From assembly GCA_964276145.1 (NCBI GenBank), contig CAXYDN010000007.1, positions 74,411-138,410 of the forward strand: a DNA stretch of 64,000 bases. Direction: 5' to 3'. This document shows positions 11,872 to 51,568 of this stretch, one piece after another. The stretch's first letter is position 1. Every line of letters begins with the position of its first letter. A program made the position numbers and the translations under genes. Source of the stretch: an uncultured SAR86 cluster bacterium (lineage in GTDB: Bacteria > Pseudomonadota > Gammaproteobacteria > Magnimaribacterales > D2472). The notes below the pieces were generated by a model. It saw only the letters and a list, made by a program, of their open reading frames with translations. It was not told the origin of the DNA and did not search any database.

Positions 11872-12461
11872 ATATGTTGACTTGTGATATTAATAACTTC
11901 TTGATGCAAATCGTTTATTGGCTTTTGAGCATTAAGAACTTTAATTCTATTATTATTTTTACTTAAATCTAAATAGCCTTGTCTAACATTCTCAAAAAAA
12001 GTATTGCCAGATGATTCTATTCTATCTTTAGTATCATTAGTTTTTCTTTTAAAACCCTCATCAACAGAAATATCAAGTAAAAATGTAATATCAGGAATTG
12101 GGCATTTAGTGAATTCAATAAGATTATTAATTAACTCTAATGAAAGGCCTCTTCCATATCCCTGATATGCAGATGATGCATCAAAAAATCTATCAAACAA
12201 GATAAAATCATTACTGGAATTTATAATTTTTTCTTTAATAAGTTGAGCTCTTGCCGAAAACATTAAAAGAAGCTCGGTTTCAGATGAAAGATCTTCATCA
12301 GAATTTAAAAGAATATCACGTATTTTTTCACCAGTAACTGTTGATCCAGGTTCTCTTAATATTTCAGTTGCAAGACCTTTTGATTTTAGATGTTCATCAA
12401 GCATTTTTATTTGCGTTGATTTACCAACACCTTCAATACCTTCAAAACTAATTATCTTCAT
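11868..12461 (-). CDS. tmk: thymidylate kinase
   Basis: FEGIEGVGKSTQ P-loop, DRF..SS.AYQG, and synteny mltG-tmk-holB. Confidence 0.9.
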   Translation of the reverse strand: MKIISFEGIEGVGKSTQIKMLDEHLKSKGLATEILREPGSTVTGEKIRDILLNSDEDLSSETELLLMFSARAQLIKEKIINSSNDFILFDRFFDASSAYQGYGRGLSLELINNLIEFTKCPIPDITFLLDISVDEGFKRKTNDTKDRIESSGNTFFENVRQGYLDLSKNNNRIKVLNAQKPINDLHQEVINITSQHI

Positions 12462-13408
12462 TTATCTAGACCTATCTTACTAATCATTTGCTTATGTTCT
12501 TCATATGTTTTAGAAAAATAATGAGAGGTTGGTGAGTTAGCTACAAAAAATAAATAATCGCCAGGGAAGCTTGTGATAGCTGCTTCAAGTGATGATATAG
12601 AAACTATAGAAATCGGTGTTGGGGGTAAGCCTTTAATCATATATGTATTGTATCTATTATTATTATCAAGAATATCAGATTTTTTAATATCTCCATCAAA
12701 ATCTGGTAATAAACCATAAATAATGGTTGGGTCTGCTTGAAGTTTCATACCAAGACTGATTCTTTTTAAAAAAACACTTGCTATATCTTTTTTTTCAAAA
12801 TGATTACCAGCTTCCTTTTCAATAATAGAAGCTAATATTAAAGCCTCATATTTATTTTTTAATAAATTTAATTCAGGTTTTTTATTCCATAATTCTGTTA
12901 ACTTTAGATCAAGGCTTTTATGACTAGCTTTAAGAATATCTGATGCTTTCATGCCCTTTTTATAAAAATAAGTATCCGGGTATAGAATGCCTTCATTAAA
13001 AGGATAACTAGTTGTTAAACAACTTAAGTTTAAACAATCATTTATGAGATAACTTTTATCTATAATTTTATTAAGATCGAATATATTCATTCCTTCATTA
13101 ATTATTATGAAGCGAGTGAAGGTGTTACCTTTGTTGAAAGAATTTATTGCAGTTGCAATGTTCATTTTTGAGATATTGTATTCACCGACTTGAAAAGAAT
13201 TGATATTATTTTTATTAGCATAAATTTTAAAAAATAATTTATTAAGTAAACTGTCTGAAGCTAATTTTGAAATTACAGCATACATGCTATCGCCAGGCAT
13301 AATTTCTATAAAAGATTCAGAGTGTTCTGAATTAAAGAAAGCCTTGTAGGGACCTACAAATGAGATAATAAAAATTAATATTATAAATATGTTTCTAAGT
13401 AATAACAT
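12458..13408 (-). CDS. mltG: endolytic murein transglycosylase MltG (YceG family)
   Basis: N-terminal anchor plus the YceG motifs ASIIEKEA, NTY...GLPP.PI and HYFS.T..EH. Confidence 0.85.
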   Translation of the reverse strand: MLLLRNIFIILIFIISFVGPYKAFFNSEHSESFIEIMPGDSMYAVISKLASDSLLNKLFFKIYANKNNINSFQVGEYNISKMNIATAINSFNKGNTFTRFIIINEGMNIFDLNKIIDKSYLINDCLNLSCLTTSYPFNEGILYPDTYFYKKGMKASDILKASHKSLDLKLTELWNKKPELNLLKNKYEALILASIIEKEAGNHFEKKDIASVFLKRISLGMKLQADPTIIYGLLPDFDGDIKKSDILDNNNRYNTYMIKGLPPTPISIVSISSLEAAITSFPGDYLFFVANSPTSHYFSKTYEEHKQMISKIGLDK

Positions 13409-13460: not shown

Positions 13461-13524
13461 AAAATAATTCTAATAAAAACTGTTATCGAATACAGTTTAA
13501 GAGTAACTATATTAAAAATACTTT

Positions 13525-13828: not shown

Positions 13829-14545
13829 TTAATACATAAACAAGCCACCATCAACAGAAATGGTTTGACCAGTAATGTAAGAAGCATCTTCACTTGCTAA
13901 AAAAATAGCTAACTCAGCTATATCATTAACAGAGCCGAGTCTTTTTAAAGGAATATCTTGTGTTAATTTTTCCTTAGCATTTTCATCGAGATATGATGTC
14001 ATATCCGTCTCAATAAAACCTGGGGCTATTGAATTTACAGTGATTCCTCTAGAGCCAACCTCTTTTGCTAAAGATTTAGTAAAGCCGCTAAGCCCTGCTT
14101 TGGCTGATGAATAATTAACCTGACCTGGGTTTCCCATTAAACCTGAAACTGATGAGATATTTATAATCCTTCCGTGTCTATTTTTAATCATACCTTTAAT
14201 TAGGGCTTTTGTTAGATTGAAGGTGCCAGTTAAATTAGTAGCGATAACATTATCCCAATCTTCGTCTTTCATTCTTAAAAATAATTGATCAGAAGTTATA
14301 CCAGCATTATTTATTAAAATTGATGGTGTTAAATTATTTTCTTTTAGATAATTCATACACTCATTAACAGAGTCCCTATTTGTGATATCTAAGGACAACG
14401 GAATTAAATTTGAGTTATCTGAATCAAATGTAAAATTATTTCTTGATGTTCCAATAACTTTATGACCTTTATTTGCAAAATGTCCTGCAATAGCAGTTCC
14501 TATTCCGCGAGAGGCTCCAGATATAAATACTACTTCTTCACTCAT
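13829..14545 (-). CDS. fabG: 3-oxoacyl-ACP reductase
   Basis: SDR motifs GASRGIG, NNAG and YSSAKAG; located between fabD and acpP. Confidence 0.9.
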   Translation of the reverse strand: MSEEVVFISGASRGIGTAIAGHFANKGHKVIGTSRNNFTFDSDNSNLIPLSLDITNRDSVNECMNYLKENNLTPSILINNAGITSDQLFLRMKDEDWDNVIATNLTGTFNLTKALIKGMIKNRHGRIINISSVSGLMGNPGQVNYSSAKAGLSGFTKSLAKEVGSRGITVNSIAPGFIETDMTSYLDENAKEKLTQDIPLKRLGSVNDIAELAIFLASEDASYITGQTISVDGGLFMY

Positions 14546-39606: not shown

Positions 39607-41757
39607 TTAAGTACTTAAATTAATCATTCTTACTGTTCCTCCAAGAGGAACGACATCAACATCACTTGCTGGTGGAATGTACCATATAGGTGATGACCAA
39701 GCTCTTTCTTGAATAGTATCATGCAAATCTTCACGTGGCTTGAAGCCTCTACTTATTGCATCCCATGTACTCCACCTACAGGTAGGATTTTCCAACACTC
39801 TTGCATAATAGAAAGATTTAGTTTCGTTATCAAATTCTGGATCTATCCAATTTGCTTTCAATTCTGCTGAACCAACATTTTTAGTTATAGAGCAATCATC
39901 GATATTAACTTTAGCTCCATTATCTGGACATCTATTTGTTACGGGATCAACTTGAAGACCATCAGAACACACAACATCAAAAACTTTTTCATGCCCTCTT
40001 CCTGAAGCATCAGACCAACCCTTTATAATCTGGACTCTTTGAAGCGGTGCACCATTTTTGTCTCTTTGCGCCCAAACAATAAACTCAGGTGCTTTATCCC
40101 CATCACCAAGGAGATCAGAACCCATAGTGACTCCGTTTTGATAAGCATTACTTACGAGCATCTCAGAATTTAAATCAATGCTAGATAAGTTATAACCTCC
40201 AAAGAAACGCACAGCAATTCGAGTTCCTGTTGTTGCAAAAGTTTCTTTTCTTTTAAAAGCTTTAAATATTGAATCTCTGGTATTTTCTTCAGCCCAAACA
40301 GCAGCCAAACCTGATGCACCCCATTGAGTGAAACCAGTATTTGCATATTCACCTTGATCTAATGAAATAGTGCTTCTTGGTTGATTAAATGATCTCATGT
40401 AGTCATCCATTCTTTGAAGATTCTCTTGGGATAGAGGTGCGGATCCTCTATTTTCAGGATCACCATCTAAAATACCAACCTTAGACCAATAATTTGATTC
40501 ATCAAAGGCACCGGCACCAGTATGAGTATCAGAGGAACCAATAAGACCAAATTTATATGGATTGCCTTGATTGGTGAATTCTAGCGTCAATCCATTTAAA
40601 TAAGCTTCTCTAACATAACTACCAGATGGTTTGCTAAAAGTTGGTGGCCTACTCCCTACTCTTATATCCATTATTTCAAAGTCAGCCCATTCATCATCTG
40701 GTGAAAGTAAAGGATGAGTCTCTGAAGTACCTTTAACTTGCGTAATTTCAACGAGAGGCTCATTTCGCATTCTTTTTTCAGCATATTCTCTATTAATTGG
40801 GTAAGAATAAAATGTCTCCATTTCAAACATCTGGCCATTTGATCCATTAGGATTATGAGGTATTGAAACAGTATCGACACCCTTATCACGTAATTTATCT
40901 TGCCATGTCCATAAATCTTCTGGGTTTATTGAATCTATTCTTGTCCATGGCCTAATGGGAGCCTTTGATGAATTAAAGATAACATTTCTATGTAAATTAC
41001 CGCCCTCAACATTTGTTGAGGTTGTGAATTCATACCCAATAAAAGTTGTGAAATGACCAGGATCATTATGCTCATTAGCTGCTCTAGCAACGTCTTCCCA
41101 AGCAGACTTATGAATTTCATAGTCAAAAGATTTTAAAGCTGTTTGAGTATTTTTTGTAAGCCAAGCTTTTAATACATTAGGACTCATGTCTGAATAAGTT
41201 TGGGTAACAGTTCCACCAAGAATTTGGCTAAATAATGCAGATCTTGGTCCAGCAGATTCAGCTGTCAAATTCTCTACTCTGTTTAAATCATGAAAAGGTT
41301 TGGCAAAATCTTTTTGAGAGATGTCGGTTGAAGTATCTGACCAAGCATTCAACATACCCATAAAAAAACCATGATCAGTAACTGAATAAAAATCTAATGG
41401 TTCTTGTAATTTCATCTCATATCCCATGGGATGCATAATGCCATCTCCTTTAGCGTATCTGTATGCATCATTTGGAGTTGCTGTAATACCAAATATATAG
41501 GCATCAAAAGAATGTTTGGTATGAACGTGAAGATCGCCATAATAGGGATTTCTATCTTTGTTTGGTTTTGGTTTTGGCTTAGATGATTTTTCTTTATCAG
41601 ATGAAAAATCTATAATTTCAGTAGCACTATCTGACCTCATCATATCTATGAGACTGATTAAGGGTCTATTATCAGTTACTGATGACCATAAACTGATAAA
41701 TAAAGCTAAATAGATTACTGGTATGGCTATTAAAAGCTTTACAAAAATTGATTTCAT
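39607..41757 (-). CDS. exported DUF3604-like protein with PHP-type metal-binding motifs (paralog 1)
   Basis: Membrane anchor, then YYGDLHVHT.HSFDAY, VTDHGFF, GYEFT, NLHRNVIF, IPHNPN, EITQVKGTSETHP and GSSDTH, and a 4-Cys C-terminal module. The start is set at the ATG at 41757, which has the SD GGGGAGA. Confidence 0.7.
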   Translation of the reverse strand: MKSIFVKLLIAIPVIYLALFISLWSSVTDNRPLISLIDMMRSDSATEIIDFSSDKEKSSKPKPKPNKDRNPYYGDLHVHTKHSFDAYIFGITATPNDAYRYAKGDGIMHPMGYEMKLQEPLDFYSVTDHGFFMGMLNAWSDTSTDISQKDFAKPFHDLNRVENLTAESAGPRSALFSQILGGTVTQTYSDMSPNVLKAWLTKNTQTALKSFDYEIHKSAWEDVARAANEHNDPGHFTTFIGYEFTTSTNVEGGNLHRNVIFNSSKAPIRPWTRIDSINPEDLWTWQDKLRDKGVDTVSIPHNPNGSNGQMFEMETFYSYPINREYAEKRMRNEPLVEITQVKGTSETHPLLSPDDEWADFEIMDIRVGSRPPTFSKPSGSYVREAYLNGLTLEFTNQGNPYKFGLIGSSDTHTGAGAFDESNYWSKVGILDGDPENRGSAPLSQENLQRMDDYMRSFNQPRSTISLDQGEYANTGFTQWGASGLAAVWAEENTRDSIFKAFKRKETFATTGTRIAVRFFGGYNLSSIDLNSEMLVSNAYQNGVTMGSDLLGDGDKAPEFIVWAQRDKNGAPLQRVQIIKGWSDASGRGHEKVFDVVCSDGLQVDPVTNRCPDNGAKVNIDDCSITKNVGSAELKANWIDPEFDNETKSFYYARVLENPTCRWSTWDAISRGFKPREDLHDTIQERAWSSPIWYIPPASDVDVVPLGGTVRMINLST

Positions 41758-41857
41758 TCTAATTCTCCCCAAATATATATAAATTTATTAAATCAACTCA
41801 AACAACTATAGTCAATCAATATAAGTGCAGATTGGTTATGCTAAAATAAACAAAATA

Positions 41858-43903
41858 CTAATCTGATTTAACCCATATTGGCGATGACCAAGCCCTTTCT
41901 TGAATAACTGAATCGATATCAGATCTTGGTTTCTCTCCGTTTCTAACAGCATCCCAAGTTGACCATCTACATGATGGATTTTCTATAACACGAACATAAT
42001 AAAAAGCATTCATATCAGAATTAAATTCTGGATCTTTCCAGAAGGTTTTAAGCTCTGATGCGCCTATGTTTGCTGTGGTTGAACAGTCATTAAGATTAAC
42101 TTCTGCTCCATTGTCTGGGCAACGATGAGTTTTTGAATCAACCTTTAAACCATCTGAACATGCTACATCAAAAACCTTTTCATTATGGACTCCGTTTTCG
42201 ACCCATCCTTTAACCACTTGGGATCTTTGTAATTTATTACTAAGTGGATCTGAAACTGCCCAAATTAAAAATGTTGGGCTGATTTGATTATCTGCAATAA
42301 GATCACCACCCATAGGTATGCTCAATGAATAAGCTTTTCTAATAAGATTTTCATCTGAAAGATTATATTTCTCTAATTCATAGCCACCAAAAAATCTTAC
42401 CTTGATTCTAGGGCCTGATGTTGCAAAGGTTTCTTTTTTTCTAAAAGCAGCAAAAATTGATTCCCTTGTATTCTCTTCAGCCCAAACACCTGCAAGTCCA
42501 GAGGCGCCAAAATGTATAACGCGGTCTCCTGCATTGAGATAATAATTATTATCAACATATTTCATAAGACTTGCCCTTCCTCGAGAAACTTCTTCTGATT
42601 CAGAACCGGGAATCTTGCTCATGATATAACCAAAAGTTTTATTAAAAGGTACTGAGCCCCTCAGCTTAGGAGTGCCATCAACCATGCCGATTTTAGAAAA
42701 ATGTGTTTCTTCATTATATGATCCGCCAGCTACATGACTATCGCTAGAACCAATAAGACCAAATTTATATGGATTAACAATTCCTTTTTCTTCAAATCCA
42801 AGACCTCTCAAGTATGCATTTCTTACATATGAACCCTTAATATTTTTTATTTCATTTGATGGATACCTGGGTGGTGTAGCGGTTTCAAATGAGGCCCATT
42901 CATCATTTTTTGAAATTAATGGATGAGTTTCAGAGGTTCCTTTGGCTTGAGTTATTTCAACCAATGGTTCATTTAGCAACCTATTAGATGCATAAGCATC
43001 ATCAATTGGTCCGCCATTAAAATCATTATTAGAAAAGGCAGAGCCGCCAGAAATATTTGAGTTATGAGGAATAGCTAAACTATCAACACCATTTTCTCTA
43101 AGACCATTCATCCATTCCCATAATGGCTCAGGGTTCATGCTATCAAGTCTAGAAAAAATTTTATCGGGAAGATTTTTAGTGTCCTCAAATATCACATTAC
43201 GATGAAGATAATTATTGTATAAGTCTTCAGACGAAGTATATTCGTAACCTGCAAAGGTTGTAAAAATACCAGGCTTATATGCATCATCAGCAGCTTTTAT
43301 TGTTTCTTGCCAAACACTTTTTTGAACATTATCTATGAGGTCAATATCAATTGTGCCATTTCTGATTCCTTCAATGGTTGTTCTAGCAAAATTTGTAAAC
43401 AATCCACCTCTTTTAAAAACTTCTAAAAACCCATCAGGTCGAGATTCATTTAAATTGTGAACTGGCTTTGTATACTCATACTTAGAAAACAAAGAGTTAG
43501 TGTCTGCAGCGGTTGGTAGAAGTCCTAGAAAAAAACCATGGTCAGTTACCGCATAAAAATCTAGCGGCCTTCTCAGCTTTATATCATAGCCTGTTGGATG
43601 AGGAATTGACTCTCCTTGAGCAAATTTATAAGCCATGTCAGGATCACTTAAAGATCCAAATGTGTATGCATCAAATGAATTTGAAGTATGTATGTGCAGA
43701 TCACCGAAATATGCATTTTTATTTGGATTAGGCGAAGATAAAGAGTCCGTGCCCAATAAATCAGCTACTTGATAATAAGAATCATCTAATGAGGTTTGGA
43801 CTTGTTGTTTTTTATCTATGTCAAGAATAAACAAGCCATAGAAAATAAAACCACCAAGGATAAGTATTAATATTAATACAACTCCGCCAATTTTTTTTAT
43901 CAT
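41858..43903 (-). CDS. exported DUF3604-like protein with PHP-type metal-binding motifs (paralog 2)
   Basis: It has the same motif set as paralog 1 (YFGDLHIHT.NSFDAY, VTDHGFF, GYEYT, YLHRNVIF, IPHNSN, EITQAKGTSETHP, GSSDSH) and the same 4-Cys C-terminus. By eye, roughly half of the aligned residues are identical to paralog 1. Confidence 0.7.
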   Translation of the reverse strand: MIKKIGGVVLILILILGGFIFYGLFILDIDKKQQVQTSLDDSYYQVADLLGTDSLSSPNPNKNAYFGDLHIHTSNSFDAYTFGSLSDPDMAYKFAQGESIPHPTGYDIKLRRPLDFYAVTDHGFFLGLLPTAADTNSLFSKYEYTKPVHNLNESRPDGFLEVFKRGGLFTNFARTTIEGIRNGTIDIDLIDNVQKSVWQETIKAADDAYKPGIFTTFAGYEYTSSEDLYNNYLHRNVIFEDTKNLPDKIFSRLDSMNPEPLWEWMNGLRENGVDSLAIPHNSNISGGSAFSNNDFNGGPIDDAYASNRLLNEPLVEITQAKGTSETHPLISKNDEWASFETATPPRYPSNEIKNIKGSYVRNAYLRGLGFEEKGIVNPYKFGLIGSSDSHVAGGSYNEETHFSKIGMVDGTPKLRGSVPFNKTFGYIMSKIPGSESEEVSRGRASLMKYVDNNYYLNAGDRVIHFGASGLAGVWAEENTRESIFAAFRKKETFATSGPRIKVRFFGGYELEKYNLSDENLIRKAYSLSIPMGGDLIADNQISPTFLIWAVSDPLSNKLQRSQVVKGWVENGVHNEKVFDVACSDGLKVDSKTHRCPDNGAEVNLNDCSTTANIGASELKTFWKDPEFNSDMNAFYYVRVIENPSCRWSTWDAVRNGEKPRSDIDSVIQERAWSSPIWVKSD

Positions 43904-49998: not shown

Positions 49999-50028
49999 AA
50001 AAAAACCCCCAAGTAAACTTGGGGGTTT
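49999..50028 (-). terminator. strong rho-independent terminator (or attenuator) about 10 nt upstream of the eamA start
   Basis: The minus strand reads AAACCCCCAAG-TTTA-CTTGGGGGTTT followed by further T residues (TTTTTTTATC in total after the G-run). Confidence 0.75.
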
Positions 50029-50271
50029 AAGAAATCTAGTTTAATTGCAGTAGCAACTCTGAACTAGTCGAAAACTTAAAACTTACCTCTTGTCAAAAGG
50101 TAGATCCTCCGTTTCCTGTTATTAAATAAATACTAATAGGATCACCTCCATTGTTCAGGGTAATAATAAAATGAATGCCAGTCCCCTTAAAAAACTTGCA
50201 AACAAGACATCTTCATAAATTATATACACTCTATAAATGAAATAAAGTATTTTTTTGGGATAAAAAAATAA
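50029..50271 (-). ncRNA. structured non-coding segment: 3' UTR of the SOS-controlled ORF, a leader of eamA, or an sRNA (undetermined)
   Basis: No ORF longer than 15 aa on either strand. There is an imperfect ~10-bp long-range hairpin GGAGGTGATCC (rc of 50139-50149) / GGATCTACCTT (rc of 50097-50107). A second hairpin is CTAGTT..AACTAG (50044-50075). The terminator follows. Confidence 0.35.
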
Positions 50272-50481
50272 TTAAAAACTAAATTCTAATTGAGCCTTTG
50301 GTTCTATAAAATTTATGGATTTCGAGTTAAATGTATACTTATTAATATAAGTGTTTAATGCATCTATATCGTTATTGAAGTATTCAAAGGCAAGAGTTTT
50401 TTTAATTGAGGGTTTGTCATGCGATGATATAAATCTCTCTATCACAGGATCAAATTTATTTATTTTTTTTAGATTATTCAT
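50272..50481 (-). CDS. orphan 69-aa protein under a LexA-box promoter
   Basis: ORF with near-leaderless geometry relative to a TTTACA-18-TATAAT promoter. I recognise no family, and the coding status is unproven. Confidence 0.45.
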   Translation of the reverse strand: MNNLKKINKFDPVIERFISSHDKPSIKKTLAFEYFNNDIDALNTYINKYTFNSKSINFIEPKAQLEFSF

Positions 50482-50490
50482 AATGAAGTA

Positions 50491-50520
50491 ATTATACTGT
50501 ATGTATATACAGTATGTAAA
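50491..50520 (-). promoter_or_regulatory. sigma70-type promoter: -35 TTTACA (50520-50515), 18-bp spacer, -10 TATAAT (50496-50491)
   Basis: Read on the minus strand. The -10 ends 9 nt before the ATG at 50481, which implies a very short leader or none. Confidence 0.6.
50495..50514. promoter_or_regulatory. LexA (SOS) box, TACTGTATGTATATACAGTA
   Basis: Matches the gammaproteobacterial consensus TACTG(TA)5CAGTA (CTGT-N8-ACAG) at 19 of 20 positions. It fills the promoter spacer and overlaps the -10. Confidence 0.8.
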
Positions 50521-50530
50521 TACTTATGAA

Positions 50531-51106
50531 TTAATCGTCATGAACGGGATAAAACCTTCTATCTTTAAGCATATTGAACATAATCATTAACCATATTACA
50601 AATGTCATTGCACCGAATACATCTCCTATGAAAAATCTAGCTATAACAATTGCATTGATATCAACATTATTCATTAAACCCAATACAAGATTAGTGAAAA
50701 TAGCATTGAATAATGCTGATATTATTATCACTAATATAAGAAATTTATAATTAGCAAAATTAATTTTCTTCAGGATTGAATAAGAGAAACTAGAAGCTCG
50801 TGACCATTTCAAGATTTCTACAGCAACCACAACTGAGGCTAACGAAAAAATGCTAGCAAAACCCCAGTACTGAAGATATTGATCACCGTATATCAAAGTT
50901 GGGCCAGTTATTTCAGCTAAATATAATGCTGGAAGAGATCGCGTGCCAAAAAAGCAATAAAAAACAACCCTACAACCATGTGGCAAGTAGACAAGACTAC
51001 CAACCCAACCCTTATCAAGGGTTTGAAACGTTATATAAGACCATAAAGCATATACAAGCATTGCAGCAACATAAGTAGTTAGAGTTACTTGCATGAAGTA
51101 TTTCAT
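50531..51106 (-). CDS. orphan integral membrane protein (about 5-6 TM)
   Basis: 191-aa hydrophobic ORF lying 21 nt downstream of the wHTH gene. I recognise no family. Confidence 0.55.
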   Translation of the reverse strand: MKYFMQVTLTTYVAAMLVYALWSYITFQTLDKGWVGSLVYLPHGCRVVFYCFFGTRSLPALYLAEITGPTLIYGDQYLQYWGFASIFSLASVVVAVEILKWSRASSFSYSILKKINFANYKFLILVIIISALFNAIFTNLVLGLMNNVDINAIVIARFFIGDVFGAMTFVIWLMIMFNMLKDRRFYPVHDD

Positions 51107-51127: not shown

Positions 51128-51421
51128 CTAAACAGCAATCAAGTCTAAAAATACCTCTCTTCTATCTGCGTTAGATTGAATAAGTTTGACCATATGATCA
51201 TCTTCAAAGTTTTTAATTGCCTTGTAAACAGTGGATCTAGAAAAACCAGAAGATGCGATCACATCAGTAATATTACATTTACCACATGAATGAATTTTTG
51301 AGGCAATTGTATAATAAATTTTTTTCTCAGTTTCATTGTATGAGACAAGATTTAAATCTTTATCGATGTTATTAAGCATTTCTAATATGCTTGCTAATTG
51401 TTGTAAGTATTTTTTAGACAT
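51128..51421 (-). CDS. small winged-helix (MarR-like) DNA-binding protein, 97 aa
   Basis: The ITDVIASSGFSRSTVYKAIKNFEDDHMVKL..S..DRRE pattern resembles the recognition helix plus wing of MarR-type wHTH. It is shorter than canonical MarR. Confidence 0.5.
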   Translation of the reverse strand: MSKKYLQQLASILEMLNNIDKDLNLVSYNETEKKIYYTIASKIHSCGKCNITDVIASSGFSRSTVYKAIKNFEDDHMVKLIQSNADRREVFLDLIAV

Positions 51422-51427
51422 AAAATA

Positions 51428-51456
51428 ATTCTAGCTATGTATACTAAATCTTGCAA
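51428..51456 (-). promoter_or_regulatory. putative promoter TTGCAA-17 bp-TAGAAT for the wHTH gene; geometry predicts a leaderless mRNA
   Basis: -35 at 51456-51451 and -10 at 51433-51428. Only 6 nt separate the -10 from the ATG at 51421. The spacer contains the palindrome GTATAC. Confidence 0.45.
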
Positions 51457-51478
51457 GAGCTAAAAATAATTGAAATAT

Positions 51479-51568
51479 TGGCGGAGAGACGGGGATTCGA
51501 ACCCCGGAACCAGTTACCCAGTTACTACCTTTCCAAGGTAGCGCAATCGACCACTCTGCCATCTCTCC
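51479..51568 (-). tRNA. tRNA-Ser (anticodon GGA), long variable arm, CCA encoded
   Basis: The reverse complement folds with acceptor GGAGAGA/TCTCTCC, anticodon stem CTACC/GGTAG, loop TT-GGA-AA and T-loop TTCGAAT. Length is 90 nt. Confidence 0.9.

Follow-up and report, generated by a model that had tools for sequence, protein, structure and literature searches.

A candidate LexA operator in the promoter of a conserved, undescribed small-protein gene of SAR86 bacteria

Organization of the locus

The stretch of DNA considered here (the window) is 64 kb long, has a G+C content of about 32% and derives from a genome of SAR86 (Magnimaribacterales). On its minus strand lies a short gene for a protein of 69 amino acids, preceded by a promoter into which a palindrome of the LexA type is set and followed by a conserved structured RNA; the coordinates of these and of the neighbouring features are collected in Table 1. 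Across the related loci, which come from single-cell and metagenome-assembled genomes of SAR86, the usual order is queF, tRNA-Ser, a 97-aa winged-helix gene, a 191-aa multi-pass membrane protein gene, the box with the 69-aa gene, the conserved RNA, and the EamA and rhodanese genes.

The winged-helix and membrane genes constitute a variable cassette between tRNA-Ser and the 69-aa gene, which is found in most SAR86 loci and places the winged-helix gene two genes upstream of the 69-aa gene. For the membrane protein, no match was found in Pfam, NCBIfam, PADLOC or PHROGs. In one locus (L067) the cassette is absent and the box and small gene follow directly on tRNA-Ser, in another (L081) both cassette genes are deleted down to a 3' remnant with the box and small gene intact, and in a third (L071) the membrane gene is duplicated with the box and small gene unchanged. 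It is evident that the box and the small gene form an autonomous unit.

Two other features of the window deserve mention. A 10-bp perfect palindrome (TCTTGCAAGA; within 51421-51479, minus strand) overlaps the predicted -35 element of the winged-helix gene just after tRNA-Ser, and may be that regulator's own operator. Further away, two tandem DUF3604 proteins of ~700 aa each are encoded on the minus strand (39607-43903) with a TonB-dependent receptor nearby, and are syntenic with the locus of the small gene in many SAR86 genomes.

Table 1. Coordinates of the small-protein locus within the window and the evidence for each feature
Feature	Position	Strand	Evidence or remarks
Conserved structured RNA, about 215 nt	49999..50213	minus	17-locus alignment, RNAalifold, terminator
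Intrinsic terminator ending the RNA	50003-50028	minus	just before the EamA ATG (49987)
Promoter of the RNA: CTTTAT(TT), about 17 nt, TATAAT	50219..50247	minus	invariant upstream blocks
69-aa protein gene (MNNLKKINKFDPVIERF...EPKAQLEFSF)	50272..50481	minus	ORF, homologues, dN/dS, -10-to-ATG spacing, AF2
Codons of the C-terminal hexapeptide QLEFSF-COOH, candidate beta-clamp-binding motif (QLxLxL type)	50275..50292	minus	invariance and family counts
-10 hexamer TATAAT	50491..50496	minus	promoter scan and conservation; shares its first two bases with the end of the box
LexA-type operator (SOS box), 20-bp palindrome	50495..50514	plus TACTGTATGTATATACAGTA; minus TACTGTATATACATACAGTA	unique in window, weight matrix, conservation
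-35 hexamer TTTACA (or TTACAT, 1 nt shifted, 17-nt spacer)	50515..50520	minus	promoter scan and conserved TTG column 5' of the box
191-aa multi-pass membrane protein gene	50531-51106	minus	
97-aa winged-helix gene (weak TrmB/MarR)	51128-51421	minus	

A LexA-type box inside the promoter

Read along the minus strand, positions 50480-50525 take the form TTTACA-TACTGTATATACATACAG-TATAAT-tacttcatt-ATG, in which the box fills the promoter spacer, abutting the -35 hexamer and overlapping the -10 hexamer by 2 nt. This is the geometry given in the original prediction, and a promoter scan reproduces it as the top promoter-like site of the region (TTTACA-18 nt-TATAAT, 11/12 positions); the distance of 9 nt from the end of the -10 element to the ATG (50481) of the 69-aa ORF was likewise correctly given. 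The box itself, TACTGTATGTATATACAGTA, agrees with the gammaproteobacterial LexA consensus TACTG(TA)5CAGTA at 19 of 20 positions, with a single central mismatch and an intact CTGT-N8-ACAG core, as had been claimed. It is, moreover, the sole match to that consensus in the window at up to three mismatches, and 100 dinucleotide-preserving shuffles of the window contained none at the same tolerance.

Scoring with a LexA weight matrix, as proposed with the original prediction, gives the box 25.9 bits on a matrix built from about 21 E. coli LexA operators, all of which it exceeds (best 22.8). The next-best site in the window reaches 13.0 bits. The observation of the box and its promoter is correct throughout and lies far beyond chance.

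The bare core CTGT-N8-ACAG occurs twice in the window, against 0.48 expected. Its second occurrence (AACTGTTATCGAATACAGTT, 13478-13497) is intergenic, between fabG (13829-14545) and mltG (12458-13408), and was dropped as a candidate LexA operator on account of its weight-matrix score of 13 bits, which is background level; this site, at 13480, is probably a chance occurrence or a small hairpin.

Conservation of the box across SAR86

The pattern [TC]ACTGTAT-N4-ATACAGTA stands immediately upstream of the small gene in all of the more than 70 fetched loci with upstream DNA, and was found nowhere else in 440 kb of fetched SAR86 loci. When 54 distinct upstream sequences are aligned on the box, each of the 16 arm positions reaches about 2 bits, and the four central bases and the flanks are lower or variable; in matrix form the arms read TACTGTAT-N4-ATACAGTA, and every one of these 16 specified positions equals the gammaproteobacterial LexA consensus. 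The promoter elements vary more freely around this fixed core. In the same 54 unique upstream sequences, the -35 element appears as TTGTAT, TTGAAT, TTGCAT or TTACAT in different clades, with a conserved TTG column just 5' of the box, and the -10 element of the loci is TATAAT, TAAAAT, TACAAT or TATTAT, the register of both being constant and the box always lying in the spacer. The box, whose presence at homologues the original prediction had proposed to test, is thus retained in all orthologues with upstream DNA, and it is retained also in a divergent 72-aa subfamily with the same layout of box and promoter (for example TACTGTATAAATATACAGTA and TACTGTATACATATACAGTA), whose members were found by profile searches only and are more diverged than all members of the first search (56-96% identity).

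Given that synonymous sites in the adjoining gene are saturated between clades (pS about 0.7), the identity of the box between the same clades argues that it is not neutral DNA. The arms show neither changes nor compensatory pairs, and drift is confined to the centre, which points to binding by a protein and speaks against an RNA hairpin. A hairpin or terminator was accordingly rejected as an explanation of the palindrome: the arms are without covariation, a T-run is absent, and the box is kept where it directly follows a tRNA gene.

A transcript predicted to be leaderless

The spacing between promoter and start codon is narrowly set across the family: of 67 loci, 42 have 9 nt between the -10 element and the ATG, 18 have 6 nt and 6 have 7-8 nt, so that 66 fall within 6-9 nt. 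As RNA polymerase commonly initiates some 7 nt past the -10 element, a gap of this size predicts a 5' untranslated region of 0-3 nt and hence a leaderless mRNA. With the start site placed by this spacing, it is likely that the mRNA of the small gene is leaderless.

The original prediction had also singled out the ORF for having no Shine-Dalgarno sequence. The absence stands; its distinctiveness does not, for a search within 20 nt of the start codon finds a Shine-Dalgarno-like motif, even loosely defined, in only 11 of 50 genes in the window. For the most part, this SAR86 genome seems to initiate translation independently of such motifs.

A small-protein family of the SAR86 lineage

Described at first as an orphan, the ORF turned out to have a substantial family. 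A first homologue search with the 69-aa ORF yielded 50 clusters at 56-96% identity, and a profile of distant members retrieved 631 clusters (90% identity clusters), all database copies bearing the name 'hypothetical protein'. An exhaustive HMM scan of 1.84 billion representatives returned 37 members only. The gene is conserved across the SAR86 order, and the family appears, on these searches, to be narrow and specific to the SAR86 lineage.

Selection on the gene acts at the level of the protein. Over 943 pairs among 50 distinct alleles, the median Nei-Gojobori dN/dS is 0.19, which is not near the value of 1 that had been named as pointing to a fortuitous site or an RNA product; conservation of the family begins at M1, and length and termini are conserved. 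The 69-aa ORF is almost certainly a real protein gene. Its product is hydrophilic (GRAVY -0.53, pI 9.0, no TM segment), and the analysis shows a soluble protein, about 8 kDa in mass, on which purifying selection acts; being hydrophilic, it is neither a membrane toxin nor a division-inhibitor peptide.

The statement that the protein resembles no SOS protein also survives closer scrutiny. There is no match in Pfam at E<=1, in NCBIfam at E<=0.1, in PADLOC or in PHROGs, which excludes the DinI and YebG models present there, and a sequence profile search of the PDB likewise gave no match. Membership in DinI, YebG, SulA, UmuD or TisB-like families was therefore rejected, since neither Pfam, NCBIfam and PDB sequences nor fold comparison offered a match. 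Nor was the gene found in phage and plasmid collections (tblastn) or in viral contigs (scan), which argues that it is not a gene of mobile elements. As far as sequences can be compared, the reading as an undescribed, DNA-damage-inducible small protein is supported by strong evidence: a dN/dS of 0.19, a SAR86-wide distribution and a retained box. The gene family is new and undescribed; the kind of gene, an SOS gene under LexA control, is already known.

Some database homologues call for caution. Several of them (P0008, P0080 and P0066) end in ...CLLYTSPSPRD... or ...SVSYTHLTLP..., which we take to be translated read-through of Nextera sequencing adapters; these ends are assembly artefacts and not variants. 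In two others (P0063 and P0067), the family domain is fused to pieces of unrelated upstream genes.

Predicted structure and the C-terminal motif

An AF2 model based on an alignment of 46 sequences is of moderate confidence (pLDDT 71.5, pTM 0.47) and assigns residues 12-19, 23-34 and 39-56 to helices, with a disordered tail of low confidence beyond them; Foldseek searches of PDB and BFVD with this model gave no significant structural neighbour. Two regions of the protein are strongly constrained. One is the block K28-D38, which reads KxLAFEYFxND in alignment A2, with T29 and N36 nearly invariant, and the other is the C-terminus, where P61, Q64, E66, F67 and F69 are invariant in the same alignment. 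The linker at residues 47-59 is variable in sequence and length and has a pLDDT around 50.

The C-terminus conforms to Q[LM]x[LFMI]x[FL] or Q[LM]x[LMF]F in 173 of 199 family members, 131 of which end in QLEFSF, and the exceptions are mostly chimeras, adapter read-throughs or sequences with frameshifts. In remote members the C-terminus is QLELSF or QLAMF, or else QPEL[LMF] occurs close to it. Judged by the amino-acid composition of the genome, such an ending has a chance expectation of 1.3e-4 per protein, and none of the 55 long ORFs of the window has a clamp-like C-terminus. Motifs of the form QLxLF (pentamer) or QLxLxL (hexamer) mediate binding to the beta clamp and are used by all E. coli polymerases (PMC4564189). 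QLEFSF keeps the spacing of QLxLxL and sits at the extreme C-terminus of a disordered tail, with Phe in place of Leu at positions 4 and 6. Going by this pattern, binding of the tail to the beta clamp is a tentative proposal, of somewhat less than even probability.

Such a pattern match admits other readings, and conserved hydrophobic residues at the C-terminus might just as well serve as a degron or as a docking peptide of another kind. The gene may be LexA-regulated and the tail a signal for degradation by Lon, ClpXP or a tail-specific protease, providing rapid removal after the SOS response, or else a peptide that docks elsewhere (RecA, SSB partners, FtsZ), with the activity residing in the helical domain. 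SulA and UmuD are rapidly removed after the SOS response, and a hydrophobic C-terminus behind a disordered linker is also typical of degrons and of other short linear motifs. Moreover, the helix-2 block KKTLAFEYFNND is invariant too, which suggests a domain with a binding surface of its own, and the contact with DnaN is predicted from the motif pattern. Against this, the invariant Gln lies five residues from the C-terminus and is followed by [LM] and by hydrophobic residues at motif positions 4 and 6, precisely the QLxLxL spacing, and the divergent members drift toward the pentameric clamp form (QLAMF-COOH) and not toward known degron forms. A Gln residue is not known to characterize ssrA-like or SulA-type degrons, from which the tail differs in this respect. 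A degron or a different docking site is therefore considered a rather unlikely explanation of the tail, albeit one of appreciable weight.

A conserved structured RNA downstream of the gene

Between the small gene and EamA lies a conserved RNA, with a mean column identity of 85% over 17 diverse SAR86 loci, exceeding the conservation of the ORF. RNAalifold predicts 41 pairs, of which 11 show compensatory changes. Upstream of the RNA, the blocks ctttattt and tatataat are invariant in 32 unique sequences, and at its 3' end a strong terminator closes with a T-run that ends about 10 nt before the EamA start codon. No Rfam family was found for the RNA, and identities as 6S, SRP, tmRNA or TPP were judged by eye and rejected. 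It is a candidate leader or riboswitch for EamA-rhodanese, or a candidate sRNA. The RNA contains GGAGGTGATCC, the complement of the 3' tail of 16S rRNA. As an unannotated structured RNA, it is independently worth following up.

No terminator was found between the ORF and the RNA, so that the latter is probably also the 3' part of the SOS-induced transcript. This touches on the alternative raised in the original prediction, in which the functional part of the transcript is RNA downstream. In its present form, it would make this RNA, or read-through into EamA-rhodanese, the relevant product of the LexA-controlled promoter, with the ORF secondary. The structured RNA does exist, it is more conserved than the ORF, and the way from the ORF to it is free of terminators. 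However, the RNA has invariant promoter elements of its own and hence no need for the LexA-controlled promoter, and the ORF, conserved in length and termini, clearly evolves under purifying selection on its protein product and is plainly coding. The existence of a downstream RNA was thus well foreseen, whereas its being the point of the LexA-type promoter is most improbable.

The question of the regulator

The assignment of the box to LexA follows from the identity of the motif with the gammaproteobacterial LexA consensus and from the conservation of its position. The regulator itself was sought in several ways. By tblastn with E. coli LexA and RecA as queries, neither lexA nor recA was found in the window, nor in 586 kb of fetched SAR86 loci, and extensions of 10 kb on both sides of the window revealed mfd, with no SOS gene and no box. 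When E. coli LexA was compared with a set of 5.8 billion proteins, only enterobacterial sequences were among the matches listed, and the SAR86 genome papers examined make no mention of LexA. Besides the box of the small gene, no further SOS-type box occurs in the approximately 586 kb of SAR86 DNA, which therefore offers no in-genome operator for comparison.

These results lend some substance to a different view, namely that the palindrome is the operator of a non-LexA regulator, whether the 97-aa winged-helix protein or another SAR86 factor, and that the gene stands outside the damage response, its likeness to LexA sites being a coincidence. Such a view would account for the absence of lexA from the sequences searched and for the lack of a second LexA-type box in 586 kb, and the winged-helix gene, two genes upstream in most loci, is a ready candidate. 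On the other hand, all 16 arm positions equal the gammaproteobacterial LexA consensus and the host is a gammaproteobacterium; the box and gene are unchanged where the winged-helix gene is absent (L067) or deleted (L081); and the region upstream of the winged-helix gene has no such box, and instead the unrelated palindrome TCTTGCAAGA. The local winged-helix protein was rejected as the binder of the box on the latter two grounds, and a non-LexA regulator of any kind is considered improbable. LexA-type regulation of the small gene, as read from motif and position, is held with good though not full confidence. The core claim, that of a conserved small-protein gene repressed by LexA, receives a more guarded assessment once the uncertainty of the effector mechanism is discounted, and is regarded as somewhat favoured.

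Comparison with known SOS systems

In its layout, the SAR86 promoter is reminiscent of those of E. coli sulA, umuDC, recN and the colicin genes, which likewise have a 20-bp palindrome of the TACTG(TA)5CAGTA type inside the promoter, overlapping the -35 and -10 elements; compared with the near-consensus SOS operators of E. coli, its strength by weight matrix is equal or higher. It differs from them in that the product is unrelated, the mRNA apparently leaderless and the host a streamlined marine lineage in which LexA is putative. DinI (81 aa) and YebG (96 aa) are also small, soluble, cytoplasmic proteins controlled by a LexA box, whereas the SAR86 protein, lacking a Pfam or NCBIfam match, is predicted to consist of three helices and a C-terminal linear motif.

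Short lineage-specific ORFs under a LexA box are also known in the SOS-induced division inhibitors SidA, DidA, YneA and SosA and in the type I toxins TisB and DinQ. These are membrane peptides; in contrast, the SAR86 protein is hydrophilic and has no TM segment. A type I toxin-antitoxin system of the tisB/istR kind was rejected on similar grounds, since the protein is hydrophilic and the RNA lies downstream on the same strand without overlap and is not an antisense antitoxin.

With respect to the tail, the closest parallels are Pol IV and Pol II, with QLVLGL and QLGLF at their respective C-termini, and Hda, with QLSLPL; Pol II and Pol IV are themselves SOS-induced. What these proteins share with the SAR86 protein is a terminal Q-L-x-hydrophobic-x-hydrophobic peptide on a flexible tail. 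The SAR86 protein differs in its size of 8 kDa, in the lack of a catalytic domain and in having Phe for Leu at positions 4 and 6, and its clamp binding is predicted. SocB of Caulobacter and small DnaN binders of phages are proposed to act on the beta clamp, occupying it and halting the elongation of replication, and resemble the SAR86 protein in small size and proposed clamp occupancy. Unlike these, the SAR86 gene has no homology to them and no adjacent antitoxin or adaptor gene, and it is absent from phage and plasmid collections.

Proposed mechanism and outlook

The geometry of the locus suggests how the gene might be controlled. A LexA dimer on the 20-bp palindrome would span the spacer and reach both hexamers, excluding RNA polymerase, until DNA damage led to a RecA filament, self-cleavage of LexA and firing of the promoter. 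As the operator is essentially consensus, the parallel with sulA and umuDC of E. coli would lead one to expect tight repression, and induction at a late stage or under heavy damage alone. Transcription would begin at the ATG or at most 3 nt away, and the leaderless mRNA would be translated directly into a product predicted to have three helices in its N-terminal domain (residues 12-56), then a linker that is disordered and variable, and the invariant ending Q-[LM]-E-F-x-F-COOH. The tail could then enter the hydrophobic cleft of the beta sliding clamp (DnaN), as does the hexameric QLxLxL at the C-terminus of Pol IV, and the small protein may, after damage, compete with polymerases on the clamp or re-order them, acting as a replication brake or checkpoint or, through its helical domain, as a clamp-tethered adaptor.

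Carried to its end, this line of thought envisages an SOS effector of a new class, an 8-kDa protein made from a leaderless mRNA under tight LexA repression, in which a clamp-binding C-terminal peptide would be the sole conserved 'business end'. It would plug the beta-clamp cleft after damage so as to pause or re-program replication and, in a streamlined genome, take on the checkpoint role of E. coli SulA and UmuD2C. Read-through may also link its induction to the downstream RNA and to the EamA-rhodanese operon. In this full form the proposal is speculative, and we regard it as possible but on the unlikely side.

A SAR86 isolate with a closed genome exists (PMC11582366), which makes these predictions directly testable. 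Should the clamp-binding tail prove real, it would set the gene apart from the ordinary run of SOS genes and would represent a minimal, protein-only means of modulating the replisome during the SOS response, and at the same time a natural ligand of the clamp cleft, of interest for the design of replication inhibitors. To our knowledge, almost nothing is known of stress regulation in SAR86, and a clean LexA-type operator over a lineage-wide gene of unassigned function would provide a concrete handle on it.
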